A DNA stretch of 60,948 bases, filler included, from Jimgerdemannia flammicorona (taxonomy: Eukaryota), in NCBI GenBank assembly GCA_003990765.1. It is 3 parts of 3 records of this genome, joined end to end, with 100 filler letters (N's around TTAATTAATTAA, not from the genome) between each part and the next. Parts side by side here need not be neighbours in the genome. Positions count along the whole stretch, not along the records: positions 40,702 to 60,948 come from RBNJ01001725.1; 2 more parts are not named here. The stretch is one strand, 5' to 3'. Each line of letters starts with the position of its first letter. Within the stretch, counting starts at the first letter, position 1. Position numbers and translations under genes: made by a program. This document shows positions 4,075 to 60,948 of the stretch, piece after piece. The notes below the pieces were generated by a model. The model had not been told where the DNA came from, did not search any database, and saw only the letters and a program-made list of their open reading frames with translations.

Positions 4075-5660
4075 TGTTATATAGTGGTCACTGAGTCCTT
4101 CAAATATGTCAGATTCTCTTCAAGATATATCTCTTAGACTAACTCAAGTTTATTATAAGTAAGTTCTTATTGAAGTGCCTTCCTAAGGTCTTATAGTCCT
4201 CAAACTTCTTATATTTAAACTGTCTTATTATCTCTTTAGATTGCTTGTAAGGAATTATATATATTACACTAAGAGGAATTGAGTTTATTTCAGAGAAAAT
4301 AAGAAGGATATTTATACAAAATATAATTTAATAGTTACTAAGATATAAAGTTAAATATAAATTCCAATAACTAATAAAATACTAGAACACAGAAAACTAC
4401 TAAGTTCCAGAGTTGGCACAGATGGTTGCATAGATTCAAGATGCTGATATAATTTCAGTGATATAGGAAAATGATACTGGAATAATTCTGAGTCATAAGG
4501 TCAAAATACTGGTAGAGAAATAGCTATTATACAGAAAAAAGATACTGGCATAATTCAGTATAACTAAGGAACTTAGAGTAGAATATTCAAAACCATGAGG
4601 GCTTCATCCTCATCATTACTATCCTTAAAGAAGATGAGATCTACAAATATTTCAGTCTCATCATATAGGTCATATATTTCATATACTTTGCATATATCAT
4701 ACAAGATGATATTTTTGTCAATGATGTTATCATATTCAGCTATAGCAAGAATAAGGAGGTCTGGGGCTCTCCAGTCTATGAGGTTCTCTTCCACAAAATA
4801 GAGAACAAATGTGGAGTCTTGGAGAGACCTAATCTAGATGCTTGGATCTTGGACTACTGAGATCAATTCTTACAAGAATTGATCTGAGTTGTTCTGGAGG
4901 ATGGAATGCCAGAAGTCTTCTACTTCATCACTATTGAGAGTGATGGTAGACTAGGCTTCTGTAGCCACTCTGGCTTCTAGTACATTAATATGGCAGGCTG
5001 ATAGATCTCTGAAATCTAAGACTCTAACATACTCCAAGTTGGAGATCAACTATAGTATACATATGCCTGAAGATCTGATGAATCTTCTTAGCTATCCTTA
5101 CTTCTCATATATCTATGGAAGTGGTATCTTGTAACTTTTAGGGGCTGATCTGTGAAAACTTCTGGTAGAGAAGGTTTTATATTTTATACTCCTGCCATAT
5201 TTGGAGACATTTGATAGCAATGGTGATCCTTGTTTCCATTTCACAGCAGTAGAGGATAAAGTAATAAGGATCTACAATACACAGGTTAAGGCTATAAATC
5301 CTTCTTGTATGGATCCTCATGGCTCTTCTGATGTCTTGGAACATTCTTTCTTTGACTGAGATATCTTGGTGGTTTCTTGACCTTGAGGTTTGGTAAGTAG
5401 CAGACATTTCATTTATGGTAAGTCTTTGAGCTATTTTGGGATTAGTGAGTCTTATTGAGTTACTACTACTGTGGTTCCTTGATCCTTCTTTTATATTCTT
5501 CAAGATACCTGAACTGTGATCACAATAACTCACAGTTAGTCATCATTACTTATCTCATAACCTGAGTTATACTATATGATCTTCTTGTGTTCCAATCTGG
5601 TGGCTTATAAGGAAAGACTGTCTCTTATACTGATGTCATCATTCTGAGGTCACCATTACA
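4075..5660 (-). mobile_element. G2-family LTR, first copy of a tandem pair
   Basis: TG...CA termini; colinear with the LTRs at 51808-53357 and 59052-60604; left flank ATAT. Confidence 0.9.
4573..5407 (-). pseudogene. LTR-encoded ORF, decayed copy (unknown protein)
   Basis: MSATYQTSRSRNHQDISVKERMFQDIRRA...MVLNILL*; homologous to 52309-53115, with stops and a frameshift. Confidence 0.7.
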
Positions 5661-5665
5661 TCAGT

Positions 5666-7191
5666 TGTCATGTAGTGGTCACTGAGTTCTTCAAATATGT
5701 CAGATTCTCTTCAAGATATATCTCTTAGACTAACTCAAGTTTATTATAAGCAAGTTCTTATTGAAGTACCTTCTCAAGGTCTTATAGTCCTCAAACTTCT
5801 TATCTTTAAACTGTCTTATTATCTCTTTAGATTGCTTGCAAGAAATTATATGTATTGTATTGAGAGGAACTGAGTTTATTTCAGAGGAAATAAGAAGGGT
5901 ATTTATACAAAATATAATTCAATGGTTGCTAAGATATAAAGCTAAATATAAATTCCAATAATCAATAAAATGCTAGAATACAGAAAACTACCAAGTTTCA
6001 GAGTTGGCACAGATGGTTGCATAGGTTCAGGATGCTGGTATAATTTCAGTAATACAGGAAAATAGTGCTGGAATAATTCTGAGTCACAAGGTCAGAATGC
6101 CAGTAGAGGAATAGCTATTATACAGGAAAAGGATACTGGTATAATTCAGTATAACTAAGGGACTTAGAGCAGAATGTTCAGGACCATGGAGGCTTCATCC
6201 TCATCATTGCTATCCTCAAAGGAGATGAGGTCTACAAATATTTCAGTCTCATCATATAGGTCATATATTTTGCATACTTCATATATATTGCATGAGATGA
6301 TATCATCACCAATGACATTATCACATTTGGTGGTGGTGGGAACAAGGAGGTCTGGGGCTCTCCAGTTTATAAGGTTCTCTTCTATAAAATAGGAAACAAA
6401 TGTGGAGTCTTGGGGAGGTCTAACCTGGATGCTTGGGCCTTAGAATATTGAAGTCTTCTACTTCATCACTATTGAGGATAATGGTAGACTGGGCTTCTGT
6501 AGCCACCCTAGCTTCTAGTATATTGATACAGTGGGCTGACAGATCTCTGAAATCTGAGACTCTAATATACTCCAAGTTGGGGATCAACCATAATGCATGC
6601 CTGAAGATCTGACGAATCTTCTTAGCTATTCTTGCTTCTTGTATATTCATAAGAGTAGTATCTTATAACTCTTAAGGGCTGGTCTGTGAGAACTCCCAGT
6701 AGAGAAGGTTTTCTATTTTATACTTCTACCACATTTAGAGATATTTAGTAGCAATGGTGATCCTTATTTCTATTTTATGATAATAGAGGATAAAGTGATA
6801 AGGATCTGCAGTACCCAGGTTGAGGCTAGGAGTCCTTCTTATATAGATCCTTATGGCTCTTCTGATGTCTTAGAACATTCTTTCTTCAACTGAGGTATCT
6901 TGGTGATTTCTTGATCTTGAGGTTTAGTAAGCAGCAGGCATTTCATTTGTGATAAGTCTTTGAGCTATTTTGGGATTGGTGGGTCTTATTGAGTTGCTGC
7001 TACTGCAGTTCCTTGATCCTTCTTTTATATTTCTCAAGATACCTGAACTGTGATCATAATGACTCATAGTTAGTCATCATTACTCATCTCATAGCCTGAG
7101 TTATGCCATATGATCTTCTTGTATTCTGATCTAGTAACTTGCAAGAAAAGACTGTCTCTTGTACTGATATCATCATTCTGAGATTACTATT

Positions 7192-7194
<3 letters not shown>
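5666..7194 (-). mobile_element. G2-family LTR, second copy of a tandem pair
   Basis: Direct repeat of 4075-5660, separated by TCAGT; internal deletion near 6448; right flank ATAT inside a (TA)n run. Confidence 0.9.
6164..6941 (-). pseudogene. LTR-encoded ORF, decayed copy (unknown protein)
   Basis: ATG at 6941 (MPAA...), QIFRHALWLIPNLEYIRVSDFRDLS, same terminal LNILL*; internal deletion. Confidence 0.7.
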
Positions 7195-18615: not shown

Positions 18616-19899
18616 ATAAATTGCATCCATTCAGAGCACTATCAATCTCAAGCCTATCTACATAATAGATGTTATTACTAGAAATTATCTCAGGTTACAA
18701 GAAATATTATTTCTGAGAGGTTCAAATCTCCAGCTATAATAATGAGAGCCCTTGCCCTAGACAAAGATGGTCAGTCTTTATAAATGTACCAATAAGATAA
18801 AAAAAAAAAAAAGACCAAGATCTGTTAACTCTGTATAATTATAACTACAATGTGATAGTATTTTTGAAATTAGTATTTTCTTATATGACCAGCATATATC
18901 CTGCTTATAGTAATAAGTTATATATTTCTCTAGAAATATGATTAAAATGGAGTTATACAAGACAGATAAATAAGCATAAATATCTAGAGCAGAAATATAC
19001 TACAACTCTTATCTCTCTCTTCTCTCCTCAAAGAAAAGACAATGTAAGAATATCTGCTACCTACTACTAAACAGCCTGCTATAGCCAATCTCTCCCAAGT
19101 CAGATTGACTGTCTCTTTAGACATATCTAGATTACTATCTAAGGAAGAAACCACTACTTTGAGGCCCTTAACCTCACTAGTCAGAACTTAGAACATTATA
19201 TCCTCAACTGCTATAAAGTTATCAAAAGGGCCTATCTTACTATCAGCTACCTAGAAATCTAGTATAAATATGAAATTGACTATCAACTTCTTTAATATGC
19301 AAAAGGCCTACCCACTGACCTAGTCTCAGACTAGACTAACCTAAATAGATATGAGCAAAGACTAGCTAAGAAGGTCTATCAAATCATATACCATGTATCT
19401 TTTATAATCTCCAATCTCAACTATATATAACTGAAAGGACTTTCAGAATCTCTCTTTTTCTGAGATTGATGAACTAGAGATCAAGATTGCCCAAGAAGTC
19501 AACTTCTAGATTACTCTCAAGTTTACTAACTACAAACTCCACTAGAGCTTCCTTCTGAATAATAATCCAGACCAATGACTCCAAGGTCTCTCTGATCTCT
19601 TTAAAAGACTGTCCATCTGAATGGATATCCCTAAATATAAAGAGCAAGAACTCTATTTGGATGGCCCCAACTATATTAGATGAAGAACCTCTACCCCACC
19701 ATCTATACTAGTTCAAGAACTATTTGTAGACCTCATTGACTTCTCTATTCTTAACATTGAGCCATCAGCAACTACCCCTTCCAACCACTAGAGAAGATGG
19801 CAATATTATCAATAAGAATTCTCTACCTTTCTCTTTCCTAGTTCTCAATTTTTAAATCAACAAGAACATTGACTTTTAAGAGAAGAAAGATATAATAGA

Positions 19900-25330: not shown

Positions 25331-25359
25331 TGGGGCTGGCAGGAAAGTACATCGATATT

Positions 25360-28879: not shown

Positions 28880-29230
28880 CTATACTTCTTGCCTCAGTAA
28901 TCAAACTTGAGTACTTGTTGGCCAATATCAACAACTGCATTCATTTTCTTCATTCAGTTGGTACCAAGAATCATGTCATAGGTGACAGTTTCAGTGACAA
29001 CAGCTTTGGGGATGGAGAACTGAATGTGTCCAAGAGAGATAGTGATATTTCATACTTCTCCAAGGAGTTGAGTTCAGGCTCTATCTGCTACTATGATGCT
29101 GAGGTTAGATGGTCCATCAATGGGCCATTGCAGGGTGTCCAAGAATCATTTGGCAATGACACAGACAGCTGCTCCTGTGTCTATGAGGATTTTCACTTTT
29201 TGTCCTCCAATATCTCTATATAAGTAGGTG
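28880..29230 (-). pseudogene. G1 aspartic protease
   Basis: KILIDTGAAVCVI catalytic motif (Asp codon 29179-29181) and downstream ILGTN. Confidence 0.85.
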
Positions 29231-29699
29231 CTGACATGTCTTTTGGCTGCTTGGACAGGGATGGAGGCCAGTTCTTGCTGTGGGATTGGAACTCGGCCAG
29301 TGCTAGATCTGGTGGTTCTCAGCAATTTGTTTTGAACTCCAGCTGGTGTCAGTTACAAGAACTGCAGGAGAGGGACTTCCATCTTGGCCTCTTGAATCTT
29401 TTGCCAGGCTTCATTGTAAATGTCTCTAGGCATGGTCTTCAGAGTATACTTCTTCTTAGGCTTTGGAGCAGCAGGTTCCTGTTCTTCTTGTTCCATTTCT
29501 TCATCTTCTGGTGGCAACTCATTTGTCTCAGAGACAAAAGGTGAGGGGGTTCGGGGAGGTGTTTCTACTTGTTCCTCCTCATGTTCTTCATCCTCTTCTT
29601 GGATAATTCTTCTGCTGATGTTTCTGGATGGTCTTCCTATAGGTCTCTTTCTTTTTTCTGCTGGATAGACTGTTTTCCGGTTGTAACCTTAGTGGGGTA

Positions 29700-31250: not shown

Positions 31251-31294
31251 CTGTGGGTTCTTGTGAGCTGAAAAGTCATGTTGATTTTGAAATC

Positions 31295-31312
31295 TTCCCA
31301 GTTGAGCCCCCA
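31295..31312 (-). promoter_or_regulatory. G1 primer-binding site, tRNA-Pro-like
   Basis: TGGGGGCTCAACTGGGAA begins 2 nt after the 5' LTR; resembles the retroviral tRNA-Pro PBS TGGGGGCTCGTCCGGGAT. Confidence 0.75.
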
Positions 31313-31314
31313 AA

Positions 31315-37208: not shown

Positions 37209-37241
37209 AGGCAGATTGACAACATCACATATATCATTAAT

Positions 37242-40200: not shown

Positions 40201-40601
40201 AAAGGGGACCAGGCCAGGATCTGTGGCCTAGCGGTTGGCAAGGAGTTGGGATTGGCGAGGAGTGGAACTGGCATAGTGTTTGGACCTGGAGCACTGCAGT
40301 GAGAGCATGGCTGCCACCAAAGTACTGGGTGGTCTGGTGGCGCATGCTGCGGAGGAATGTTATGCTCAATTTTCGCTTGGGGCACCTGGTTGTAGGGGGT
40401 TGCTTCGACTGTGAGGAGTGCTATAATGTAGGGCAGGAGGGGGGTTATGTACAGATGCCGGAACATTGGCTAGGAGAGTGTGAGGTGTTGGGGGATTTTT
40501 GGCAGGCAATTGGGGATCGCTTAGGGGTATGGGGTAGGAGTGATGAAGTACAGGGACGATGGGAGGACTTGAGGGTTAGATTGGTAGGGGGGATAGGGAA
40601 G
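37242..40601 (+). pseudogene. LINE A ORF2: APE endonuclease, RT, C-terminal zinc finger
   Basis: SLNVNGL, GGDFN, TRIDWI; NWRPIMLL, LDQEKAYDRV, GVPQGDPLSP, AFADD; CEEC...EHWLGEC. Confidence 0.93.
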
Positions 40602-40701
40602 NNNNNNNNNNNNNNNNNNNNNNNNNNNNNNNNNNNNNNNNNNNNTTAATTAATTAANNNNNNNNNNNNNNNNNNNNNNNNNNNNNNNNNNNNNNNNNNN
40701 N
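40602..40701. other. Assembly gap with artificial linker (N44-TTAATTAATTAA-N44)
   Basis: Same structure as 20252-20351. Confidence 0.95.
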
Positions 40702-43700
40702 ACCCACCCACCATCCGGTCAGCAGATCCCCCACCAGCTCCTCCCACCTTAACACCTTCTCACGTAACCCCAACTACTGCCCCTCCTCAAATACGAAAAG
40801 CCAATGTCCTGCCAGTCCCACCCATACTGCTAACACCCATCCTACAGTGAGCCAACTGTCCCCAACCCCACCCACCAGCCGAGATTTGAAGTCCTCCCAG
40901 TGACCCCCCTCCCCCACCCACCTATGCCCAACACCCAATCTATCCCCTATCACAGCCCAAAATTCCCCCAAGACCTCACACTCCCCCAGCCAATGTTCCG
41001 GCATCTGTACATAACCCCCAGCTTGCCCAACATCATAACACTCCTCACAGTCAAATTGTCCACCCTCTACTAGATGCCCTGAGCAGAAATTCAGCATGAC
41101 ATTCCTCTGCAACATTCTCCACCATACCACTCAGTACTTGGGAGGGAGCCACCTCCGGACCTCAGCACTCCAAGACCAGATACCTACCCAGTCCCACTCC
41201 TCTCCGATTCCAACCGCCTGCCAGCTACTCGGCCAAAGGTCCTGACCAAGCCCCTGCTGACACTCCACCCCCTCCCCAATATCGAACGTAGCCAGGGGAG
41301 TACCCCCCAGGAGCAGACTATCCCAACGCCACATATTAGGCCCCCACGCCACCTCTCCCTCGTCACCCTGCCAGCGCAGGCCAATACAGTGTGCTCCCTC
41401 TGCCACTCCCCACCAAAACCCCTTGAACCACAGTCTCCAAACTCCATTCAGCCTCACCAAAGAGAGCAGATCCCCGGAGGACCCTCGAGGGGATGTTCGC
41501 ATCTCCCATACCTTCTGCAGCAGAGGCACCCAACCCCCGCCCTGCAATTCCACAGCTCTCCTCAACCACCAGGCTCTCAAGCAGTGCAGCCTCTTAGGGA
41601 AATCCACCAGGCCCAGACCTCCCCTGACTACCGGTCTCACCAGCATATCCCAACTGACCTGGGACCTCCTCCCCACCCAAATCCATTTCCTAGCCACCTT
41701 CATTAGCTTCTTCACCACCCATGCTGGGAAGTCTAGGTGATATGCCACATACCACAGCTTTGGGAACCAATATATATTCAGGATTGACACCCACCCTGCT
41801 AGAGAGATATGGCAGCCTCCCCATCCTCGAAGGGCCTCCCCCCAACTGTTCACCCTACCCTCCCACCACACTCATGGTAAGACAGAACCATATACAGAGA
41901 GGAAGATGCCCAGATACCGCACCACCTCACCAGTAGGGACAATTGTTCCAATGACGTCCCCACCCATTAACCCATTCCCTAGCACCATTGTCTCACACTT
42001 ATGCCAGTTGAGTTTTGCCCCTAAATGAGCCTCATACCATTCCACAGTCCCCTGAAGTGCCTCCACATCCGCCACAGACCCAAGTTCAACCACCATATCA
42101 TCAGCAAAGGCTCCCACCTTCCACACTATATCATATATAGAGAGCCCTGCTATCTTCCGGCGAATCCTATCCATCAATGGTTCCAGTGAAAGGGCATAGA
42201 GAATCAGGGATAGAGGGTCCCCCTGAGGTACTCCCCTTCCCAAAGAAAAAGCCCTCCTGCGATGACCATTACACGTCAGAGCTGCCCGACTACTTTCCAG
42301 CAGACTCAACATAGAGGCCCTAAACATTGGGGGAACACCAATGCGGTCCAACACCTTTCCCAGCCACACCCGCCATACATGGTCATAGGCCTTCTCCTGG
42401 TCCAGAAAGACTAACCTTCCATCCAGCCCACAGGCCCGGGCCCCCTCAATGACCCCATGAATCCATGCAGTTCCATCTCGGATTAGCCTACCTCCAACAA
42501 AGCCCCTCTGCTCTTCTCCCAGCACCTGTTGGGCAACCTTCTGCAGCCTCGCGACAATCACCTTAGTCACCATCTTTCTGTCCATATCCAGAAGCATGAT
42601 CGGCCTCCAGTTCTTCCAATCTTCCCTTCTTCCCTTATCTTTGTACAGTAGGGCCACCAGCCCCAAATCCTGCTCTCCAACCCACATATCACTCTGAAGG
42701 ACATGGTCACAAAGACCAGCCATCTCACCCAACACTCCGGGGACATTCACTATCTTCTTCCAGAAGTCCCACGGCAGTCCATCCTCTCCTGGCACTGTCC
42801 CAAGCTTAGTTGCTGCCAGGACACCCTGGATCTCCTCTCCCTGGACTGGCAAGATCAAGTCCCCCAGTCCATCAACCTGCGGTGGTTTCCACTCCTCTAG
42901 TGTATCCGCACTCTCTGCCCCATCCACACCCCCTTCTCCCTCACTCCACAAACCCTGCCATCTCTCCTTCAAGACCCCCAGGATTTGTTGCATGCCATGA
43001 ACCATGTCCCCATCAGCATCCAGGACCCCATCCCACCGATGGCACACCCTTCTAGCTTTGAGAAGTCTCGATAAGTACCTAGTAGGCTGCTCACCCTCCT
43101 CAAGCCCCTGCCACCACAGCCTAGCAGCCATGCACCGCATATATATCTCCTCCTCTTCCCTCAGCACCTGTTGTAGTTCCACTACCTCCAATTTTGCCCT
43201 CTCTATCCTCCAATCCTCCACCCCCCCAACAGTGAGCAAGTCCGCCCAATCTACTTGTAGTCTCCTCAGCCTGCTGGAAGCACACCTCATGCACCTCCTT
43301 CTCAGCCTCCCAGCCTCCCTACCGGCCTCTCCCCAATAAACCCTTGCAGCCTCTTTCAATCGCATCCAACGGACAGCCACAGGCAAACCCTCCTACTTCC
43401 AAGTACAAACTTTTGCCTGAATATCCTCTGCCCAAAGTTCCTACAGTCCCTTCTCAGCCAGCAGGGAGGAGTTAAGGCGCCAATGTCCGGGTCCATCTCC
43501 ACTCCCCCCAAACTGCCCCTGCCTCAACAGTCCCCAGTGATCAGACCATGGGCACCACTCCACTTCCAATGCCTTCCAAACATCTGAACCCCAGCACTCT
43601 GCCATCAGAATCCAGTCAATCCTTGTGCCCAGGCCATTCACCCAATGCGTGTAGACCCTGGTGTTACCCCACCTCGTTCTGCCCATATCCCCCAAGGAGC

Positions 43701-44217
43701 TCAACGTCTCCACCTCCTCCCATGCATCCAGACCTCCACTTCTACCCCCGGCACTCCTCTCTCCATCAGTTCTGTCCAGATGCTGATCCCGAACCATATT
43801 AAAGTCCCCACTAAGAACATCTACCCCTTCCTCCAAGAGAGTACCCTCCTCTAGCAATCCCCTAATCCAAGCAATCCGCTCACCCCTAGCCGCAGGGCAG
43901 TAGCAAGAGCCCACCTTCACCGATTCCCACTCTGGCCAATTCCAATCTCCCCAGACCAAGCAATCACCCCAGCTCCTGATTCTCCCCAAGTCTCCTCTGC
44001 CTTTCCTCACCAGAATTGCTACCTTTCCAAACCACTTAGCAGCCCCCCCCCACTCCTTAGTCCACTCTGCCCGATCGTCCTCATCCTCACAATGAACATC
44101 CTGTAATAAAAAGAGATCAGCCTCCAATCCCTTGAGCCAAGTAAAAATGTTCCTATGTCGCCCAGATCCCCTTAGCCCATTCACATTCAAGGAAAAAATG
44201 TTGGTTGTACTGTTCAT
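40702..44217 (-). pseudogene. LINE B ORF2: APE endonuclease, RT, zinc finger
   Basis: MNSTTNIFSLNVNGLRG, LLQDVH, GDFN, RIDWI, SDH; GVPQGDPLS, AFADD, RYLG; a few in-frame stops. Confidence 0.93.
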
Positions 44218-44249
44218 AAAGAATAATGATATATGTCCAAGCCCATTCT

Positions 44250-46283
44250 CTATAAGTCGGCATCCTGCCTCTCCTGTGCCAGGTCCAAGTTAAGTTCAGC
44301 AGCCAGTTCCCTCTCCCCAGCTTTCCGTGCCTCCAACTCCCCCAGAAGTTTGACCATCGCCCCATCCTCATGCTCCTCAAAATCCTCGCGATACTCCAGA
44401 CATGCCTCCTGCCAGAGCTGTAGACCCCGACGCTCTGCCCAACAGTAAGCTGCCCGCTCAGCAGCAACCACCCCCAGTTCTGCCTTCCTCACCTTGTCCA
44501 CCTCATATCCCTCCTCCTCTAGCAAAATCGCCAGAATCTCCACCTTCAGTGCCTCCACCATTCCATCCCCATGCAGGATCCTTGCCCAATGCTCCTCAGG
44601 CATCGCCCACAGGTCTACCTCCCCCAATGCTTCTGCTGTGAGGTTATCCATCACCTTGCATACCCACAACAAGTTCCCCACCTTTTTCCCTCCCGGAGTC
44701 CCCGGCCGCCCTGCATCCAACATCGTAGTATTAGCTCCTACACTAGCAGCCTCATCCCACTCCTCCTCAGGGACATCCACCAGCTCATCCTCGCCAACTG
44801 CCACCACCTGACCCCCATGAGCCACATCAGGGACCCCAAATCGCACCTGCTGGGCCCCCTGCATCTGTGTATCCTCCGGCCTCCCTCGCATCCCCACTGG
44901 GCCCCTCCTGATAAGTGGGGGGGGGGTGGCATCTAACTCCGGCTCCCATACTTCAAAGGTACCATCAGCAAATGGGTCCTTGACCAGCCCCTTCCCAGCC
45001 CCTGCCTCCTTTGCTTCCACCTCCTCTCCTCCTTTACCAGCCCAGACACTGGCCTCAGCACCTCCAGACTCCCCAGCTTCACCCGACTGCTTCTTCCCCC
45101 CACCTGCCATACCCGCCAACAGCTCCTTCTGCCTCTTGCGTCCCTGGATCCACTCTCACTGCTTCTTATCCATATGGATACGCCTCCCGCCCACAACCTC
45201 CAGATGTGTTGATTCCTCAAACAGTTTCCAGGCCTTCGCCCTCCTCTCCACAGCACCACCCAACTCCTCCAGCGCCTCCAACAAGTCCTCCTCCTCCTCT
45301 TCACTCCCCTTCACCCTCGACACCTTGCAGATGACAGCCCCCCACATCAGCACTGAGGGCCAGTCACTTGGCTTCCCTGTGGCCTCTTTCCCTGCCAACC
45401 GAATCCTGACATTGATGTCGCCCATCCTGATAGTCATCCCCTCCCACAATTGAAATCCAATGTCCACCACGTCGCCATACTCAATCATCACCTCCTCCAC
45501 CCTCCTCCTAGTCTCCTCCTTAGTCACCGTGGGCACCCCCCTCACCAGAAGCTGCACGACCCTGGGGTCCCACCTCAAGCACCTAACCATGGGGACCACT
45601 ACCTCCCCAACCATCACTCCTGTCTTCATGGCCTCGTCCAGTAGGCCTGCCTCCTCAAAGCCCACCTCAACCCCCTCCATGCCCTTCAAGAACTTCACCA
45701 AGGCCGCACCAGCCACCTGCTTTGAGATAAGCCCCAGGACCATCCTCACCATCACCGCCAAGCCCCAGAAGTACAAGGTAGCTGCGAACTCCGAGATTGA
45801 CTTCTTGAGCAACGGGGCCACCACCAGTCCCGTTACACCATCAGCCAGGTCCCCCTTCCACATCGGGAGCCCCTGCCCCCCCTGGCCATCAACCGTCACA
45901 TCTCTTTTTTTTTCCAGATTCGCTGTCACGCCACCATCAGCAGTCCTGCCACTACCCCCAGCCATCCCTCCACTTCCCCCACCTCCCCCCCGTGAAGGTC
46001 CAGCTCTCCCAGCGGTTCCATCCTTCTGCTTCCCCTTCCCTCCTGCCGGTCCACCATGAGTGCCCATTGGCCAGCCTCCATCCCTCAGTGTGTCCACAAA
46101 GCTCCTCCCCTGCTTCCCTCCAGCCCCCCCACCAGTGCCACCTCCACTACCCGAGCCACCCTGCCCACTCGAGCCACCGAAAGACCCCATCCCCAATCTA
46201 TACCCTCTCCCGACATTCTGCCAGTCGAAGGCCCCAGGTCCACCTAACCTAGTACGTGCGTCGGCTTGCTTGCTGGTTGACAT
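44250..46283 (-). pseudogene. LINE B ORF1
   Basis: MSTSKQADAR...; track ORFs 45156-46343 and 44250-45119 are one frame split by a TGG>TGA stop. Confidence 0.87.
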
Positions 46284-48436: not shown

Positions 48437-50715
48437 TTTTTTTTTTTTTATCAGTCACTTGGACTCCTTTATTACTAAGCAATCTATAGAGAGAAATACA
48501 ATATCATATATTATCCAACCCTGCCGACTATCCAATCCCCCTAGGAGAGACCCCCCCAACTTCTACTTGTTTGAACACCACTTGTCCTACAATTACCTCT
48601 ATCTGACCCCCACTCTGCCAGTAGATCCTATCAATGAGCAGATAATAGTGACTACCCTGAGGCCCCCAGCCCACCTACTAGCCAGTCAAGAGATCCTCCA
48701 TCAACCTATCCCACCTTGATAACCTCTCAACAAGGCTCAACTACTGCCCTTCCTCAAATGTAAAGAGCCAATGCCTAGCTAGCCCCACCCAAATTGCCAA
48801 GGTCTAGCCATATATAAGCCACTTATTCCCCATTTCCCCTACAAGCCATGCCTTCAAGTCCTCCCAATAGCCCCCCACCACATCTCTCCTCCTCTGAATT
48901 CCCAGATGCTCTCCTATAGTAATCCAAAAATCACTAAGTATCTCACACTCCCTCAGCTAATATTCTGGCATCTGTACAAAACTCCCTTCCTGCTCTACAT
49001 TAAGACAAACCTTACACTCAAACTCCCCACTCTCAATTAAATATCCAGAGCAGAATTTCAGCATGACATTCCTCCTCACTATACTACCCAGAACTTAGGG
49101 AGAAGCTACCACTTGACTGCAGTACTCTAGGACCAAACTCCAGCCCAGTCCCACTCCTTACTTATACTAATACCCTGCTAACTCTCTGACCACACATCCA
49201 GCCCCATCTCCTGCTGATACTCAACTCCATCCTTAATGTCAAATTCAATAAGCAGAGAGCTCCCAAGTAGGAGTCTATCTCAATACCACATCATCAGTTC
49301 CCAAAGTACCTCTCTCTCATTACCTCACTACTGTAGTCTAATGCAATATGCCTCCATAGTAATCTCTCACCAAAATTCCCTAAAGTACAATCTCTTACTG
49401 CCCTGCAGGTCCACCAATAACAGAAGATCCCCTATAGAGCTCTTCAGAAAAACCCTCATCTCTCACACCTTCTGTATCAAAGAGACCCAGCTACCTCTTT
49501 GCAGTTCTACAGCTCTTCTCAATCACCAGGCCCTCAGATAATAAAGCTTTTTCAGGAAATCCACTAGACTAAGCCCCTCTCAATTCACTAGGAGTACCAA
49601 GGTGCTCCAGCTAATCTGACTTTAATGTTCTATCTAGATCTAATTCTTAGCTATCTTTAATAGCCACTGCACTATCTAAGGAGAATAGACACTCTGCTAG
49701 CCAGGGAGATGTGGTGCCCTCTCCAGTCCTGAAGTACCTCATCCCAACTTGAGACCTTGCTCTTCCACCAAGCCCTGACCAGAACAGACCCATATATAGA
49801 CAGATATACCCCAAGGTACCATACAGCCTCATCTGCTAGAACAATTGTTCCAATGATATCCCCCCCCACTACTTCATTCTCCAGCACCATTGTCTTATAT
49901 TTATACCAATTTAACTATGTCCTAAAACATGCCCTATACTACTTCACTATCTCCTTTAATGTCTCCACATCTACTACAGAGCTAAGTTCCACTACCATAT
50001 TATCTGCAAAGGCTCCCACCTTCTAAATGACTCCAAACACTAACAACCCTACCACCTTCTGCCATATCCTATCAATAAGGGGCTCTAAAGAGAGAGTATA
50101 AAGAATAGGTGATAGTGGATCCCCTTGAGGAACTTCTTTTCCTAGAGTGAAGATTGCTCTTCTATATCTATTATACAAAATTACTGCCTTGCTACCTTTC
50201 AGTAGGCTAACTATTGAAATCTAGAATTGTTGCAGAATCTCAATTCTGTCCAACACTCTACCCAGCCAGATATGCCTCATCTGATTATAGGCTTTTTTCT
50301 GATCCAAAAAGACTAGTCTTCTATTCAGTCTGCTTGTCCTTATCTCCTCAATGACACCATGTATCTATGTAGTACTATCATAAATGAGTCAGCCTCCAAC
50401 AAAGCCATGCTGCTCTTTACTCAGTATTTATTGGGTCACATACTGTAGTTATGTTATGATCACCTTGGTAACCAACTTCCTATCTATATCCAGGAGCATG
50501 ATTAGCTGCCAATTCTTCCAATCTTCTCTATCACCCTTATTCTTATAGAGTAAGATCATCAAGCCAAGATCCTGCTTACCAACTCACCTCCTTGTTAAGA
50601 GAACATAATCACATAATGCTACTATTTCACCAAGTATGTCAGATATCCCCACCATTCATTTCCAGAAATTCCAAGAGAGTTTATTCTTACCAGAGACTGT
50701 ACCAGACTTTATAGT
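48437..50715 (-). mobile_element. LINE C: 5'-truncated, decayed ORF2 with poly(A) tail
   Basis: T run at ~48437-48448 with AATAAA upstream on the minus strand; colinear with 40770-42800 (PQGDPLSP near 50110-50135). Confidence 0.88.
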
Positions 50716-51807: not shown

Positions 51808-52308
51808 TGTCACATAGTGGTTGCTGAGTTCTTCAAATATGCCAGATTCTCTTCAAGGTATATCTCTTAGACTAACTCAAGTTTGTTATAAGCAAGTTCT
51901 TATTGGAGTACCTTCTCAAGGTCTTATAGTCCTCAAACTTCTTATCTTTAAACTGTCTTGTTATCTCTTAGATTGCTTGCAAGGAAGTGTATATATTGTA
52001 CTGAGAAGACTGACTTTATTTCAGAGGAAATAAGAGGAGTATTTATACAAAATATAATTCAATAGTTGCTAAGATATAAAGCTAAATATAAATTCCAATA
52101 ACTAAAATAAAATGCCAGGACAGGAAAAACTGCTATATTCCAGGGTTGGTACTGATAGTTGTATAGGTTCAGGATACTGGTATAATTTGATATCACATCA
52201 GAATACTGGTGCTGGCATTATTCAGTATTACATCAGAATACTGATGCTGGCATTATTCAGTATTACATCAGAATGCTGATGCTGGCATTATTCAGTATAA
52301 CCAAGAGT

Positions 52309-53115
52309 TTAGAGCAGAATGTTCAGGACTATGAGGGCTTCATCATCAGAGGTCAGGATGTCTTCGAAGGAGATCAGGTCTGCAAATTCATTGTCATCAC
52401 ATATTTTGCATACTTCATGTGGAATAACATCATTACCAATGATGTCATTACATTTGGTGGTGGGAAGGAGGTCTGGAGCTCTCTAGTCTATGAGGTTCTC
52501 TTCCACAAAATAGGAGACAAATGTGGGGTCTTGGGGAGATCTAACCTGGATGCTTGGGCCTTGGAATACTGAGATCAATCCTTGTAGGAATTGGTCTGGA
52601 TTGTCCTGGAGGATTGGATGCCAGAAGTCTTCTACTTCATCACTATTGAGGGTGATAGTGGACTGGACTTCTGTAGCCACTCTGGCTTCTAGTGCATTGA
52701 TATGGCGGAATGACAGGTCTCTGAAATCTGAGACTCTAACATACTCTAAGTTGGAGATTGACCATGGTGCATGCCTGAAGATCTGATAGATCTTCGTAGC
52801 TGTCCTCATTTCGTATATATCCATAGAAGTGGCATCTTGTAGCTCTTGAATGCTGGCCTGTGGGAACTCCTGGCAGAGGAGGTTTCCTATTTTATACTCC
52901 TGCCATATTTGGAGGCATTCAGTAGCAATAGTGATCCTTGTTTCCATTTCACAGCAGTAGAGGATATAATGATAAGGGTTATTGGTACCCAGGTTGACAC
53001 TAAGAGTCCTTCTTGAGCAGGTCCTTATGGCTCTTCTGATGTCTTGGAACATCCTTTCTTTGACTGAGATGCCTTGGTGGTTCCTTGATCTTGAGGTTTG
53101 GCAGGCAGCAGGTAT
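52309..53115 (-). pseudogene. LTR-encoded ORF, best-preserved copy (268 aa, unknown function)
   Basis: 807 nt in one frame; start codon reads ATA (ATG in two other copies); one internal TAG at 52483-52485 (Trp in other copies). Confidence 0.78.
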
Positions 53116-53194
53116 TTCATTTGTAGTGAGTCTTTGAGCTATTTTGGGATTGGTGGGTCTTATTGGTTGCTGTTACTGCAGTTTCTTGATCCTT

Positions 53195-53202
53195 CTTTTA
53201 TA
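53195..53202 (-). promoter_or_regulatory. TATA box (TATAAAAG) of the G2 LTR, ~80 nt upstream of the LTR ORF
   Basis: Present at the equivalent position in all four LTR copies. Confidence 0.65.
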
Positions 53203-53799
53203 TTCCCCAGGATGCTTGTACTATAGTTACAATGACTCACAGTTGATAATTATTGCTCATCTCATATGCTATATGATCTTCTTATACTCTGATCTGGTCG
53301 CTTATAAGGAAAGACTGTCTTCTGTACTGATGTCATCATTCTGGGGTCACTATTACATCTTCCTCCTGAATAAGGATCTTCTTGAGTGTCCTTATTCATT
53401 GGTCTAGTCCTGAAAAATTTACTGATCCCATAACCTCTGGCAAGGGGTTGAAAAGTGGTGTTTATGGGCTGGCATCTTCTCTTTGTATTTTGGCATGATG
53501 GTGAAGAGTCACTCCCTTCATATAGAGCAAGGGCCTGATTCTGATCTTGACTAATCAGTTGATGGTTTGAACTCCTCTGGCTTCAAAAGTCTCATAGATG
53601 AGTAGTTGCTGGTGCTGTATCCCTTAGAGAATGGTCCAGACAGATAGCCTACTAGTCACAGAACATACTGTTATGATTCATGGACTAGAACCTCATGGGT
53701 GGTCATTATGTTTTGCTTCTCTTATATAGGTTCGTGGTACTTCTTGAGTCTATTTCTATATACTGTGATAGGCAGTATGGTCTCTGAGATTTTCTAAGC

Positions 53800-56330
53800 C
53801 AGAAGGTAGTTCTCTTGATATTGTACATGTAGAAGAGTTCTTCCCATTTGGGCTCCAGTTTTTGCAACCATGAGGCTTCTACCATATTTCAATACAGTAG
53901 GACCTTTTCTCTGATTCGGATGGGTTCTAGGGTCTTGTGATTCTTTTCCACATTCTTTCTTATCAGTGCTTGTAACTTGATAATGTAATTTTCAGCCTTC
54001 TTCCTGATTTGGTGTAGCCTCTGGATTTCTGTATCAATCTATCTCCAAGTTAGGTCTAGATTTGTGGCTGAGGTTCCATCAGAATCTTCTTCTCTGAAGA
54101 GCAGTTCTCTTGGGGTAAAGTGTGTACTCTGTGATCATATATCTCATAGGACAGAGAGGGCAGGTGGGAGATAATTATCACAACTCTCATATGTCTCTGA
54201 GATCTTTACCAAGATGTTCTTGAGAGTCTTGTTGGTTCTCTCTGTCTGTCCATTTCCTTGAGAGTGGTATGTGGTGGTCTTGATGTGCTGGATCTTGTAT
54301 TTCTGATATATTATCTCATGGAATCTATTGACAAATTCTGTACCATAGTCTGTTGTAATTTGCTTTAGTGTCTTGTAGTGGCAGATGATTTCTCAGTGCA
54401 GGAAGTCAGCTATAGAGAGAGTATTGGCTTCTTGTAATGCTCCTGCTTCTATCCATTTTGTGAAGAGGTCTACAATAACTATAATATAGTGGTTTCCTAA
54501 TAGTGTTACTGGTAGTGGCCCAATGATATCCATTGCAATGTGGTGAAAGGGGATAGGCTCAATTTTGATGACCCAGGTGTCTGGTCTTGCTGATCTTGTT
54601 TCTGTTTTTGATACTTGTCACACCCTTTTGACAAATTAACACAGGTCATCTTCTATCTTGGGCCACCACATGGTTCTTCTTGTCTTGTCATATGTATTGG
54701 TTCCTCCTAGGTGTCCTTGCTCATATACTTCCTTCATTACTTGATACTTCTTGTGTTCAGATATTACTAGCTTTCCTCCTTTTCTGAGTATAGTGTTGTC
54801 TAGTTCAAACTGTTTCCAAGTCTGATTGATGATAGTGATTGTCCAGGGTTTGAGGTGGTTGGGCATCTTCTGCTGTCCAAGATAGCTGATTAATCCATAG
54901 TATAGCTCCTTATTCATGTTGAATAGTCTTGATGGAGGTATTTCGGGGTATCCTTGAGAGTGCATTAGCATTGGTGTTAGTTCTTCTTGAGCAGTGCTTG
55001 ACAGTACAGTCATACTCTTGCAGCCTGTAGATCCATCTGACATATATTCCTTTGGGGTTCAGAGTGTGGAATAGCCAGACAAGAGCAGAATGGTCTGTTT
55101 GAATAGTGAAGTGTTTCCCAACTAAGTAGTAGTGGAACTTGTCTACTGCCCAAACTACTGCTAAGTATTCAAGCTTGCATGACTCATAATTCTGTTCTGC
55201 TCTGCAGGTACCTTGGCTTACATAGGAGATGATATATTTATGTCCATCTTTCTTCTGAGCTAGGACTGCTCCAAGTCCTATAGCACTTGCATCTGTCTAC
55301 AGGATGTATTCTAGGTTCCAATCTGGTCTTCTGAGGATAGGTGCTTGGATCAATCTGGTCTTGAGTTCATTGAAGGTTTCTTGGCACCCCTTGGTCCATT
55401 CAAATTTGGTTTTCTTCTTCAGTAGCTCATAGATAGGTACTATAATGTTGGAGTATCCTTTGATGAATCTTTTGTAGTAGCTGGCCAGTCCAAGGAAGGC
55501 ATGGACTTCTGTGGTTGTTCTGGGTCTTGGGTAGGCTGCAATAGTCTCAATCTTCATAGAGTCTATGTGAATTCTGGTCTGGTTGATGAGGTGTCCTAGA
55601 TAGGTGATTTCTTGAGCTGCAAACTTACATTTCTTGGGCTTGATGTAGAGGCCATGCTCCTTGAGCTTCTTGAGGACTAGCTGTATGTGATTAATATATT
55701 TCTGTGCAGTGTTACTGAAGATGATTACATCATCAATATAGACAAAGAGCCATTTTCCAATCTCATTGCTGAAGACTCTATTTATCATTCACTGGAAACT
55801 TACTGGGGCATTGCATATTCCAAATGGCATTCACAGATAGATATAGGTGGCATCAGGTGTGATAAAGGCTGATTTCTCACTGGCATCTTAAGTGAGACCA
55901 ATCTGATGGAAGCCTGAGAACAGATCCAGGGTAGTATAGTATTTGGCTTCACTTCTAAGAGTGGTAAGGATTTCTTGAATATTTGGCAAGAGCTGCCTAT
56001 CCTTCTTGGTGATGCTATTGAGCTTTCTGTAGTCAATGCAAAGTCTTGACACAAACTCTCCAGGCTTGCTTTCTTTCTTCAGGGCAAGGACAATGGGTGA
56101 GGCCTAGGGGCTGATAGCTTACTTGATGATTCTGGCTTCTTCCATTTCCTTGAGTTCTGCTTGCAGCCATTCTCTGAAGGCAGGTGGTATGGGTCTGGCT
56201 TTCTGGTAGATGGGCTTGGTATCACCAGTGTCAACTTTATGATAGTACTTGGGTTCTTGATTGTGGATATCCCTGAAGTCTGTAGTAAGTACTCCTTCAT
56301 TCTGATGTAGGATCTTGAGAAGTTGTTCTT
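53800..56330 (-). pseudogene. G2 pol: RT, RNase H, integrase
   Basis: RLCIDYRKLN, FVYIDDVIIFS, FLGLASYYKRFIKG, TDASAIGLGAVL, HIAMDIIGPLP, YHSQGNGQTERTN. Confidence 0.92.
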
Positions 56331-57189
56331 CCAGGGGAAAGTTTTCTCCAATAGTGTATGTGTGCTTGTTCTGGTCCTTGTCTTTCTTGTGCTCAAGTTC
56401 AGTAATCTTGATGGCAGTATAGGCTTCTCTTCCAGTAGATCCAAAGTCTTGTTCTTCTCTCTTGGTCTTGATGAGTTCAATGGCTTCTATGATCTTGGGC
56501 TTCTTGATTTCATAGATCAGTATCTGGCCAATTCTGTCATGCTTCTTGACTTCGAATGGGGTAGTGGGGTTGTGATTCCTGACTATGAGGAAGATTTCGC
56601 CAGTGTAATCAGAGTCAATTACTCCTCCTTAAACTGAGATTTTGCTTTTGGCCAGACTGCTCCTGGTCTTGATAATTCCAACATGGTTTTCTGGCAGCTT
56701 GACTCCAATTCCAGTGCCAAGTAGGGTGGTGGTCTGTGGTTCGAGGGTAGCATCTTGAATGCTGGCAAGGTTCATTCCTATGGTTCCTTCAGTCTTGTAT
56801 TCTGGGATCTTGGCTTCGGGTGAAACTTCTTGACCTTGAGGGTGATGTCTGATTCTTATTCCTCCTTGTTGTCATATCAGCCTGAAGCTCTGGGGGCTGG
56901 TCATCTTCTTCAGCTTTCCTTTTTGCTTCAGTGACTTCTTGCTTGTGTTTCTGTTGGTGGATTTTCCTGACTTCACTGATATAAGACTAGCAGTCATTCA
57001 GGTGTTCAGAGCAGTACATCCTAGTACTATGGGGGCATCTCCCTTGAGGGGCATAGCCATTGATGATCTTATTATACCACTGCTCATTTGTGAGCTTGGG
57101 TGTCTTGTTCTTGTTCTTATTCATCAAGTACATGAAAACCTCTGTGTCCTCTTCATCTCCTTCCTCCATGTCTGGTAGGACTCCTTTGT

Positions 57190-58930
57190 GGACATTGATA
57201 GAGACTCATACCTTTCTTCCTCTATAGTTGATCTGCATCTTCTGGGCATTGAGGTCAATGATGGCCTTGGCCTTATAAAGCCATTGGTTGCCAATGAGAA
57301 TGTCATAGTTGGTGGTGCTTATAATAATCACATCTACTGGAATGGTAGCTCCTCCTATCTTGATGGGGACTTCTTGGATTTTGCCAAGAAGGGTAGCTCA
57401 TATACTATTAACTGTAATATAGACCATCTTGGTGGACTCTTCAATATCCCAACTTAGGAAGTCAATTGCCTTCTTACTCATGAGGCATCCTCCAGCACCA
57501 GTATCAATGATAGTATCAAAGATACAGTCTTCAATCTGACATAAGATAGGCTGATGTCTTGTGCTGGTCTTCAGATTCTTCACCTGAGTTTTCAGATTCT
57601 TCCTGTGCATTGTGAGCTTCTATAATCTTGTACTCTTGATTCTTAGCAGTAGTTGTAAGTCCTACTCTCAACTGTTGTCTGAAGGCAGAGACTTCAGCTA
57701 GTTGTCCAAAAGTAGCATTGACCTTCTGTTTCTTGAGGTCCTTGTAGATATCATACTGGTGGATCTTGGTCTTGCACAGCTTCTGTTCCTTCTTGCTCTC
57801 GCTTTCTCCTAAGACTGAAGTAGTGCCTTCAATAATTTGGTGAGCAGCTTCATTTAACTCCATATTTTGATCAATCTCCTCAGGTTGAGTCTTGCTTTGA
57901 ATAGTGACAGCTGGGGTCTTCTTTGGTCTTCCAACTGGCTTGCTGTTGCTCTTCCTGTCATAGGGCTTGGACTGGGTTCTGGTACCTTCAGTAGCAGGGT
58001 AGAATTTGAGCTCCTCATAGTATTCTTCATCATCAGTATTACCAATCTCCTCAATGACTACTGCATTGGTTTGTTCTCTGGTTCTGCTAGCATTGCTTGG
58101 TTGGGCTTTGCATCTTGTTTTGGTCATACAATTCTTTGCATAGTAGCCTTCTTCTTTATATCTGAAGCATATGATATTGCATTCTTCTATAGCAGCTGCA
58201 AATCTCTGCACTGGTCTCCTGTTAGTACTTCAGACTTCTCTAACAACATCACCAAGATATGCAGTCATCTTGGCAAACTGCTTAGCAAGTTCTTCCACTG
58301 AGTCAGCTTTGGCTGCCTTGGGGATAGGTGGGATTGGTTGTCTGTTTACAACTATGGCAGATATGATACTAGTTGGCTTTGATGGCTCCATCTTGATGCT
58401 AGTTATTTTCTCCATTGAGTGTTCAGCAGGGTGTCTGATAGTCCAATATCTCTGTACAAAGACCACTTTCTGATCAAGGGTCAGTGCAGCTGGGGTAGAC
58501 CAGATTGCTAGGGCAATTTTGGGGTGAACTCCTTTGAGGAAGGTTGAATCTGCTATTTGTTCCTTGAGACAGTCATCATAGCTAGCCAGTATAATCTGGT
58601 GGCAGATTTGGGTATAGAATGAGTTGGGATCTTCACTAAGTTCCTGGCAGATAGTATTGAGTTGATCTTTGAGAGCTTGCTTGATCTCTTCAGTATAGTA
58701 TATTGTTCTGAGGAAAGCTTTCATGTTGGCAAGTTTGGCTACACCAGTATCAGAAATAGTGGCTGTATTGAACTTATCTCTGGCAGGTCCTCTGAGGCTA
58801 ACTAGTAGAAGGGCCAATTGTGCATCCACACCAAGGGCTCATATGGTGGTGAATTTTTCAAAGTCTTCAATGAAGGTCAGAATTGACTCTTCAGTAGTAT
58901 ATCTATAGAATGTGAGGAGATGCATTTCTA
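57190..58930 (-). pseudogene. G2 gag and protease
   Basis: SLRGPARD, EDPNSFY, FLKGVHP; decayed knuckle CFRYKEEGYYAKNC; IIDTGAGGCLMS. Confidence 0.87.
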
Positions 58931-59051
58931 TCTTGTCTTGAATTCTTGCAGGGGTGACTCTTGTAGTCAGGGTAGTTGTTGTGGGGGTTGTTTATTTTTC
59001 AGCTTGAAAGTGAGGGATTTGTCTTGAATCACCAGCCAATAGGCACTAAGT

Positions 59052-60604
59052 TGTCACATAGTAGTTGCTGAGTTCTTCAAATATGACATATTCTCTTCAA
59101 GATATATCTCTTAGACTAACTCAAGTTTGTTATAAGTAAGTTCTTATTGGAGTATACCTTCCCAAGATCTTATAGTCCTCAAACTTCTTATCTTTAAACT
59201 ATCTTGTTATCTCTTAGATTGCTTGCAAGGAAGTGTGTATATTGTACTGAGAAGACTGACTTTATTTCAGAAGAAATAAGAGGAGTATTTATACAAAATA
59301 TAATTCAATGGTTGCTAAGATATAAAGCTAAATAAAAATTCCAATAACTAAAATCAAATACCAGGATAGGAAAAACTGCTAAGTTCTAGGGTTGGTACTG
59401 ATAGTTGTACAGATTCAGAATGCTGGTATAATTTGGTGTCACATCAGAATACCAGTACTGGCATTATTAAGTGTTACATCAGAATGTCAGTACTGGCATT
59501 ATTCAGTGTTACATCAGAATGCCAGTGCTGGCATTATTCAGTGTAACCAAGAGACTTAGAGCAGAATGTTCAGGACTATGGGGGCTTCATCATTAGAGGT
59601 CAGGATGTCTTCAAAGGAGATGAGGTCCATGAATTCGTCATCATCGCATGTTTCACATACTTCACATAGGATGACATCATCGCTGATGACATCATCATAT
59701 TCAGTAGCAGGAAGGAGGTCTGGAGCTCTCCAGTCTATGAGGTTCTCTTCCACAAAATAGGGGACAAATGTGGAGTCTTGGAGAGATCTAACCTGGATAC
59801 TTGGGCCTTGGAATACTGAAATCAATCCTTGCAGGAATTGGTCTGGGTTGTTCTGGAGGATAGGATGTCAGAAGTCTTTTACTTTATCACTATTGAGAGT
59901 GATAGTGGACTGGGCTTCTGTAGCCACCCTGGCTTCTAGTGCATTGATATGGCAGGATGACAGGTCTCTGAAATCTGAGACTCTAACATACTCTAAGTTG
60001 GAGATTGACCATAGTGCATGCCTGAAGATCTGATGGATCTTCTTAGCTGTCCTTGTTTCACATATATCTATGGGAGTGGTATCTTGTAGCTCTTGAGTGC
60101 TGGCCTGTGAGAACTCCTGGTAGAGAAGGTTTACTATTTTATACTCCTGTCACATTTGGAGGTATTCAGTAGCAATGGTGATTCTTGTTTCCATTTTATA
60201 GTAATAGAGAATATAATGATAAGGGTCACCAGTACCCAGGTCAACACTAGGAGTCCTTCTTGAGCAGGTCCTCATGGCTCTTCTGATGTTTTGGAACATC
60301 CTTTCTTCGACTGAGATGCCTTGATAGTTCCTTGATCTTGAGGTTTGGTGGACAGCAGGTATTTTATTTGTAGTAAGTCTTTGAGCTATTTTGGAATTGG
60401 TGGGTCTTGTTGATTGCTATTACTATGGTTCCTTAATCCTTCTTTTATATTTCTCAGGATGCTTGTACTGTGGTCACAATGACTCACAGTTGGTAATTAT
60501 TGCTCATCTCATATATTGTATGATCTTCTTGTGCTCTGATCTGGTAGCTTGCAAGAAAAGACTGTCTCCTATACTGATGTCATCATTCTGGGGTCACTGT
60601 TACA
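59052..60604 (-). repeat. G2 5' LTR (1553 bp)
   Basis: Followed on the minus strand by ACT and TAGTGCC... (putative decayed TGG-start PBS). Confidence 0.93.
59556..60362 (-). pseudogene. LTR-encoded ORF, copy in the G2 5' LTR
   Basis: Same 807-nt length and same terminal LNILL* as 52309-53115. Confidence 0.72.
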
Positions 60605-60948
60605 CTACATATCTTCTCTACCAAATGATGCTATCAACTACCCTGCAGTCTCCACCCATACCACTAACCCATCAGAGTATCCTCCATCAGTCCTTCCCAT
60701 CACAACAGTCATACTCCTAAGCCCAGATATCTTCTATCCTCAAATACAAACAGCTAGTGTCCTGCCAACCCTACTTATATAGCCAGCACCCACCCTAAAG
60801 TAAGCCACTCCCTCTCAATCCCTCTCACCAATCTATCCTGCAAATTCTCCCACTGATCCCTCATACCATCCTCCCACTGCATAATACCCAACCTCTTTTC
60901 AACATCTATCTAAAAGTCACCAAGCACCTCACACTCTCCTAGCTAATG

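Follow-up and report, generated by a model that had tools for sequence, protein, structure and literature searches.

Genes that reach into the long terminal repeats (LTRs) of a retroelement are known from retroviruses. The sag gene of mouse mammary tumour virus (MMTV) is a complete sense open reading frame (ORF) wholly within the LTR, so it is duplicated at both ends of the provirus. The virus is a vertebrate retrovirus, and the gene product, Sag, is a membrane glycoprotein. The tas and bet genes of foamy viruses and the nef genes of human and simian immunodeficiency viruses (HIV and SIV) are 3'-end accessory genes that overlap U3, the unique 3' segment of the LTR. In foamy viruses a separate weak promoter makes Tas, a transactivator with an acidic activation domain, which turns on the LTR promoter. 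The subject of this report is an ORF in the LTRs of G2, a Ty3/gypsy retrotransposon found in 60,948 nt of DNA from Jimgerdemannia flammicorona (GCA_003990765.1), the whole of which is called the window below. To judge from its patterns of change, the ORF is a genuine coding sequence under selection that lies wholly within the LTR. The best explanation of the locus as a whole, held tentatively and at a little less than an even chance, is an LTR accessory gene in an LTR with two promoters, whose product would be a nuclear regulator of the element.

How close are the retroviral precedents? Like sag, the G2 ORF would lie in U3 under the preferred two-promoter model. Unlike Sag, its protein is acidic, predicted to be helical and has no obvious membrane segment, and it has no match to the Sag family (Pfam, E up to 10). 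The G2 ORF also differs from sag in having a conserved TATA box and leader of its own. The foamy-virus logic, in which one promoter makes a transactivator for another, is what is proposed by analogy for the window LTR. However, tas, bet and nef only overlap the LTR and start internally, whereas the window gene and both of its candidate promoters are inside the LTR. Furthermore, no sequence or fold match was found for the window protein.

Extra ORFs are also found in LTR retrotransposons. They include ORF1 of Ogre, ORF0 of Retrosat2, RIRE3 and RIRE8, the env-like ORFs of Athila and Bagy2, the antisense ORFs of Grande and RIRE2, and CERV of Cer1. (The papers cited here by PMC number were covered in part, and statements drawn from them apply to those parts.) The G2 ORF resembles them in being a lineage-specific orphan ORF present in most copies of its family; their roles are regulatory or unassigned. 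For example, CERV of Cer1 exports genomic RNA (PMC10309623), and ORF0 of Retrosat2 lies upstream of gag-pol (PMC3485330). What sets the G2 ORF apart from such internal ORFs is its location inside the LTR, which is seen in all four copies. Each element therefore carries it twice, and a solo LTR would retain it. The LTR of BARE-1 is similar in having two TATA boxes that are used differently (PMC3485330). However, both of these promoters make element RNA, and the covered part of that source mentions no ORF between them. Fungal Ty3/gypsy elements with a dUTPase (PosPlaTy3-5 and elements of Phanerochaete and Tuber) have it between protease and reverse transcriptase, as G2 does (PMC2864245), but the passages covered mention no LTR ORF for them. 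A phrase search for ORFs in LTRs found none in the covered part of PMC7264820. Phrase searches of the wider literature, covering few subscription journals, returned internal additional ORFs, the MMTV LTR ORF as the sole ORF wholly inside an LTR, and no paper that paired "ORF within the LTR" with "LTR retrotransposon". Within the literature covered, a selected ORF with its own promoter module in a Ty3/gypsy LTR appears to be undescribed.

The G2 element and the reading frame in its LTRs

The first-pass annotation of the window had listed four G2-family LTRs that share one sense-strand ORF, and a search for repeats, together with an alignment of the four units, bore this out. A unit of 1.53-1.59 kb is present in four direct copies (4075-5660, 5666-7194, 51808-53357 and 59052-60604), and all four start with TGTAA and end with ACA. 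The last two belong to one element. Its 3' LTR (51808..53357, minus strand, 1550 nt) begins TGTAATAG and ends GTGACA, and its 5' LTR (59052..60604, minus strand) is 1553 nt long, 4 nt longer than previously implied. The internal region between them (53358..59051, minus strand) has many stops and frameshifts. When these 5.7 kb are translated from the minus strand with X at stops, the Pfam domains follow in the order aspartic protease (RVP_2), dUTPase, reverse transcriptase (RVT_1), RNase H (RT_RNaseH), Integrase_H2C2 and integrase (rve). A gag-like frame with a CCHC-like knuckle precedes these pol domains. In addition, a purine tract, AGGAGGAAGA at 53358-53367, adjoins the 3' LTR. Because the repeats flank a minus-strand pol region and the purine tract lies at the 3' LTR, the two units are LTRs and the ORF is on their sense strand. 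The host element of the ORF is a decayed Ty3/gypsy LTR retrotransposon on the minus strand. Some other landmarks were sought. The self-priming match score of a primer-binding site after the 5' LTR is within that of shuffled sequences, and a tRNA scan of the window produced no gene for comparison. The flanks of the element differ, so that no target-site duplication is seen in an element that is approximately 11% decayed. No chromodomain was detected in it at E<=0.001.

The other two LTRs form a tandem. An LTR of a second subfamily (4075..5660, minus strand) is joined to the next (5666..7194, minus strand) by only 5 nt, ACTGA (5661-5665), with (AT)n on both flanks. Compared with the full element, this joint combines the 3 nt that come right after the 5' LTR with the 2 nt that close the purine tract. 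This tandem is either an element with its entire interior deleted or an integrated LTR-LTR form. In either case the two copies make up one unit, and therefore the four LTRs represent only two independent insertions.

The same sense-strand frame of about 268 codons is found in all four LTRs and is wholly inside each of them, spanning LTR positions 243-1049 of 1550 in the 51808 copy. The copy in the 3' LTR (52309-53115, minus strand; protein P0001) has 268 codons and a stop, with one internal TAG and ATA at the start position. The copy in the 5' LTR (59556-60362, minus strand; P0002) also has 268 codons, with two internal TGA codons and again ATA at the start position. Both copies of the second subfamily begin with ATG and are interrupted by stops; the 4075 copy (4573-5407, minus strand) has in addition a 4-nt insertion and the 5666 copy (6164-6941, minus strand) a 53-nt deletion. 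All the copies in the window are dead relics. The motif CEVC, noted earlier in one copy, is that of the 59052 LTR.

The lesions themselves are informative. Most of the copy-specific ones had been described as transitions, and counts within the two LTR pairs agree: transitions outnumber transversions by 88:4 and 124:6 in the ORF part, and by approximately 20:1 after insertion over the whole length. C>T changes occur in every context, with A as the following base in 83 out of 160, and CpG has been lost altogether. This decay is heavier and broader than plain CpG deamination. The ratio of observed to expected CpG is 0.01-0.05 in the elements versus 0.99 in the gene-bearing first 4 kb of the window.

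Several lines of evidence suggest that the frame was maintained before this decay set in. The longest stop-free run in the 51808 copy is 229 codons; in 1000 dinucleotide-shuffled versions of the LTR the mean is 83 and the maximum 180. Indels that distinguish the subfamilies are in frame in three of three cases inside the ORF (6, 21 and 3 nt) versus one of nine outside (Fisher p=0.018). Neither of the copy-specific indels that arose after insertion (4 nt and 53 nt) preserves the frame. Fixed changes separate the subfamilies by 1-5% in four 100-nt bins of the ORF (LTR positions 401-500 and 601-900), about as low as at positions 1401-1500, versus 14-21% in the acidic tail and just past the stop, with 21% just past the ORF. 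A more distant comparison points the same way. L001 is an environmental contig of 1535 nt that encodes an intact 291-aa member of the family. It was the single match of a metagenome scan with A5, the scan with A2 giving none. Homology between L001 and the window copies is beyond doubt because amino-acid identity is 42% and E-values are near 1e-49. When L001 is compared with the two better window copies, codon positions 1, 2 and 3 are identical at 0.52, 0.67 and 0.38 of sites, in an alignment that was protein-guided, which favours positions 1 and 2. The proportion of differences is 0.40 at nonsynonymous sites and 0.76 at synonymous sites, the latter being saturated. Together the intact relatives, the in-frame subfamily indels and the codon-position pattern uphold the earlier suggestion that the ancestral frame was open. 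On these grounds, selection is taken to have preserved the open frame during the active period of the element lineages.

An orphan protein family

The relatives of the ORF protein are few. A word-indexed search of 5.8 billion protein clusters returned five. P0004 (271 aa) is 70% identical to the window protein, covers its full length and has no stop, and P0003 (247 aa) is another intact relative. When a profile of the family was run exhaustively with HMMER against 1.84 billion representatives, five proteins matched, the distant members P0009-P0011 being new among them, and a profile search of the 5.8-billion-cluster database found 11. The distant members P0009-P0013 are 175-342 aa long and 27-47% identical. 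All database relatives are unnamed or "hypothetical", 87-342 aa in length and encoded on contigs of 0.6-4.8 kb; intact ones in public protein sets range from 247 to 342 aa. In the family alignment A7, seven of the nine rows that reach the N-terminus begin MP, the exceptions being P0001 and P0002, which read IP, and the R of MPxxR is kept in five of the nine. No relatives were found in viral and prokaryote genome collections. Longer or fused forms of the protein were likewise not found, which is weak evidence. A search for an LTR duplication inside L001 produced only short, non-collinear repeats.

One further relative is in the window itself. A heavily decayed copy at 19050..19764 (plus strand) belongs to a distant branch of the family and is approximately 49% identical to P0009, its closest relative. 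It is cut off near 19890, where GC-rich DNA ends it, and TGTGATAG lies about 190 nt upstream as a possible LTR start.

The absence of a recognisable family, noted from the outset, has held up in every search. A Pfam-A hmmscan with P0001 and P0002 gave no families at E<=10, and searching Pfam with 14 members singly gave only a chance-level match to ATG5_HBR (two members, E 0.088). The family profile had no matches at E<=10 among PDB sequences, and Foldseek found nothing at E<=0.001 when a model of the ORF protein was compared with the PDB. A wide VIA-align search had a best Z of 4.7 on a single long helix, which is uninformative, and two Atlas searches returned sub-threshold rows (scores 0.83 and 0.88, low shared counts) that were taken as noise. 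By these searches, the ORF protein is a new orphan family of approximately 270 aa, outside described families.

What kind of protein might it be? AlphaFold2 gave a predicted local distance difference test score (pLDDT) of 35 with six sequences. With 14 sequences the pLDDT was 54 and the predicted template-modelling score (pTM) was 0.46. The model has an all-helical core, parts of which reach a pLDDT of 60-89, and the last ~55 residues are disordered. The family proteins are acidic overall, with a net charge of -17 to -28. Of six proteins examined, five have a net charge of +4 to +8 over their first 45 residues and P0010 has +1; in the window's branch this stretch includes a cluster of arginines. 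The tail is variable, has interspersed F, W and L residues and is strongly acidic (net -8 to -26 in six family proteins), in agreement with the acidic C-terminus first seen in the window copies. The tail motifs DLIxF and VLNF recur even in distant members. A tail of this composition looks like an acidic activation domain, or another docking tail with short motifs, on a nuclear regulator. Of the two roles first suggested, a regulator or an anti-silencing factor, composition thus hints at the former.

Candidate promoters and competing explanations

If the ORF is a gene, what would express it? The first-pass annotation had placed the start of the ORF about 80 nt after a conserved box, and measurement gives 87-88 nt after TATAAAAG in all four copies. 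This upstream box, TATA1 (TATAAAAG), is at 53195..53202 on the minus strand, 87 nt before the ORF start, and at 60442-60449, 5488-5495 and 7022-7029 in the other LTRs. In L001 the start is preceded at 80 nt by TATAAAAGAA, and across L001 and the four LTRs the distance is 80-88 nt. The leader directly 5' of the start codon (53116..53136, minus strand) is also partly retained. Twelve consecutive bases, AAAGACTTACCA, are common to the 4075 copy and L001, ten are common to the 59052 copy and L001, and the mismatches in the remaining G2 copies are transitions. A promoter and leader specific to the ORF fit because TATAAAAGAA and part of the leader recur in a family that is 42% identical and whose synonymous sites are saturated. 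In other words, the arrangement fits a promoter module, TATA1 plus leader, that would serve the ORF.

The region downstream of the ORF is more like a conventional LTR. A 35-nt tandem repeat (52191..52298, minus strand; 3.1 copies) lies directly past the ORF stop, and each unit contains ACTGAATAAT. This repeat zone is the part of the LTR that varies most between subfamilies, and the ACTGAATAAT core occurs once after the ORF in L001. Next is TATA2 (TATAAATA; 52040..52047, minus strand), which was absent from the earlier description. It lies 27 nt before AATAAA in all four LTRs and is a candidate promoter for genomic RNA. The AATAAA itself (52015..52020, minus strand; all four LTRs) had been put about 290 nt after the ORF and is 288 nt past the stop. 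An initiator-like GTCAGTC (52008..52014, minus strand; A at 52011) follows it by 3-4 nt, and its TCA is retained in four of four copies, although its reading as an initiator is tentative. TATA2, AATAAA and TCA, with variable repeats upstream, resemble an ordinary junction of U3 enhancer, TATA box and R, the terminal repeat of the RNA. If TATA2 is the genomic promoter, then the ORF lies in U3, as in MMTV sag. This bears on a contrast that had been drawn with the U3 genes of retroviruses, which lie upstream of the promoter: the ORF does follow TATA1, but the candidate TATA2 downstream of the ORF weakens the contrast.

These features suggest a transcript structure with two promoters. TATA1, at LTR position 156, would direct a start near position 186. 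The transcript would have a leader of approximately 55 nt followed by the ORF and would end at the LTR's own AATAAA (position 1338), giving an ORF mRNA of approximately 1.2 kb. Both LTRs of an element could produce it, and so could a solo LTR. Genomic RNA would be directed by TATA2, at position 1311, and begin at the TCA just past AATAAA. In terms of that genomic RNA, U3 would hold both the ORF and the 35-nt repeats, R would be very short, and about 190 nt would be left for U5. The weakest step concerns function: the protein probably acts in the nucleus to regulate the element. Its N-terminus is basic in most members, its core is predicted to be helical, and its tail, acidic and interspersed with hydrophobic residues, resembles activation domains. 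One possibility is a transactivator that acts on the repeats upstream of TATA2, as in the circuit formed by foamy-virus Tas and the internal promoter, and the 35-nt repeats would be candidate response elements.

What if the LTR has a single promoter instead? This was the model of the first-pass annotation. TATA1 would be the sole promoter, the AATAAA at position 1338 the sole terminator, and R would be approximately 1.17 kb long and hold the whole ORF. Genomic RNA would then carry the ORF at both ends, with a leader cistron before gag, and transcripts terminated in the 5' LTR would be the ORF mRNA. TATA1 is indeed common to L001 and correctly placed before the ORF. For Retrosat2 of rice, an in silico proposal has an R of 2023 bp behind a TATA box close to the start of the LTR (PMC3485330), and plant elements with extra ORFs upstream of gag have been described (PMC3485330, PMC7264820). 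However, a 268-codon cistron with many AUGs would be expected to hamper the translation of gag. Most genomic RNA would also be expected to end prematurely in the 5' LTR, where a strong poly(A) signal would lie 1.2 kb from the cap. A single promoter also does not sit well with TATA2, AATAAA and TCA below variable repeats, which look like a usual U3/R junction. This arrangement is considered unlikely. A different way to dispense with one promoter is to suppose that the ORF is a passive resident of U3, like sag or nef. It would have no promoter of its own and would be expressed from a spliced or subgenomic transcript of the genomic promoter, with TATA1 an incidental AT-rich string. The known retroviral LTR ORF is arranged in this way, a superantigen having been tied to the ORF of the MMTV 3' LTR (PMC2118998), and TATA2 is consistent with placement in U3. 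Expression of accessory ORFs by splicing is also on record for CERV of Cer1 (PMC10309623) and the env-like ORF of Bagy2 (PMC7264820). However, TATAAAAGAA is equidistant from the start and leader bases are held in common despite saturated synonymous sites, and this is hard to explain without a function. A passive ORF therefore seems improbable.

Two other explanations give the ORF no role in the life cycle of the element. Perhaps the LTR captured a piece of a host gene, which was then transduced or exapted. Gene capture by LTR retrotransposons is documented (PMC7264820), and the family lacks a recognisable retroelement domain. However, no longer or fused cellular homologue was found, and the relatives are uniform in their short length and come from small contigs. 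Genes that have been transduced are present once or a few times (PMC7264820), whereas this ORF has been retained by both subfamilies and by a distant branch within the window. Capture of this kind is very unlikely. The last alternative is an open frame that arose by chance in AT-rich repeat DNA, with the database "proteins" being automatic calls on other copies of the repeat. The relatives are all unnamed or "hypothetical" entries on short contigs, and AlphaFold2 confidence is low. Set against this are the shuffle test, the codon-position pattern, the in-frame indels and frames that stay open at 27-47% identity. A chance frame is strongly disfavoured, to the point of being barely credible.

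The preferred reading, a selected accessory gene with two promoters and a nuclear product, has its own difficulties, and the following observations weigh against it. All four ORF copies are broken, and the start codon is missing in two of them (ATA in the 51808 and 59052 copies). Residence of the ORF in an LTR is established only for one family and two insertions. The family is tiny, approximately 14 proteins among 5.8 billion clusters. The comparison of nonsynonymous and synonymous changes between the subfamilies, which had been put forward as a check on selection, gives 32:23 on the inter-subfamily branch versus 97:39 on the terminal branches (odds ratio 0.56, p=0.09); the trend is there, but it is a trend only. 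TATAAA strings number three to four per LTR, one of which is inside the ORF and kept in all four copies, and therefore TATA2 could be there by chance. The function is read from composition, with no Pfam, PDB or fold match behind it, and the best whole-model pLDDT of the protein is only 54. Finally, L001 has a purine run followed by TGTAATA at 1249-1270, right after the stop, like the purine tract and LTR start of the window, although the run does not stand out against shuffles. In the family represented by L001 the ORF may thus sit just before the 3' LTR, as an internal gene and not inside the LTR.

Neighbouring features and significance

The remainder of the window contains several features that do not involve the ORF. 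A beta-carbonic anhydrase gene occupies positions 1-2500 on the minus strand; it has short introns and encodes two Pro_CA stretches. The enzyme is Can-like, and its nearest matches are bacterial chains and the duplicated enzyme of Porphyridium (74% identical over 57 aa). A second LTR element lies at 22202-32806, with LTRs at 22202-23711 and 31315-32806 that are 86-93% identical. Its LTRs contain overlapping frames of 100-150 codons on both strands. These were judged to be compositional and have no family match. At 20252-20351 and 40602-40701 there are two pairs of 44-N runs, each around TTAATTAATTAA, which by their look are contig joins or masked stretches, so that the window may consist of three pieces set one after another. 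A GC-rich repeat of approximately 240 nt (71-81% identity) occurs at 19895-20137, 40703-40943, 48655-48878 and 60737-60807. It adjoins both N-joins and also lies just outside the 5' LTR of the G2 element. A large inverted repeat (35467-45988, 70-78% identity) is centred near 40.7 kb in DNA of 53-57% GC, and its arms have strong opposite GC skew with long frames on both. An Rfam scan of the window was empty.

What would an LTR gene mean for elements of this kind? LTRs are usually treated as non-coding control regions in the annotation of transposable elements, in dating and in models of conflict between these elements and their hosts, and a coding gene with its own TATA box inside one is very unusual. 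A selected gene in the LTR would be present in two copies per element and would persist in solo LTRs, which usually outnumber full elements. The LTR would amount to a mobile cassette of promoter, gene and terminator, and its product could act in trans on all members of the family, including non-autonomous ones.

A bolder version of this idea is that every LTR, solo LTRs included, is an autonomous gene, with promoter, ORF and terminator, for a trans-acting nuclear factor that activates the LTR's second promoter or protects it from silencing. This is possible, and on present evidence still rather doubtful. If it is true, the element would scatter copies of its activator through the genome, a "public good" that outlives its makers, and a two-promoter circuit like that of foamy viruses would be packed wholly inside the LTR of a retrotransposon.

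The more general consequences are twofold. A new orphan protein family would be defined, with conserved short motifs and natural intact members. In addition, the strategy of placing accessory genes in U3, so far known from complex retroviruses (MMTV sag and, in part, nef and bet), would extend to Ty3/gypsy elements.

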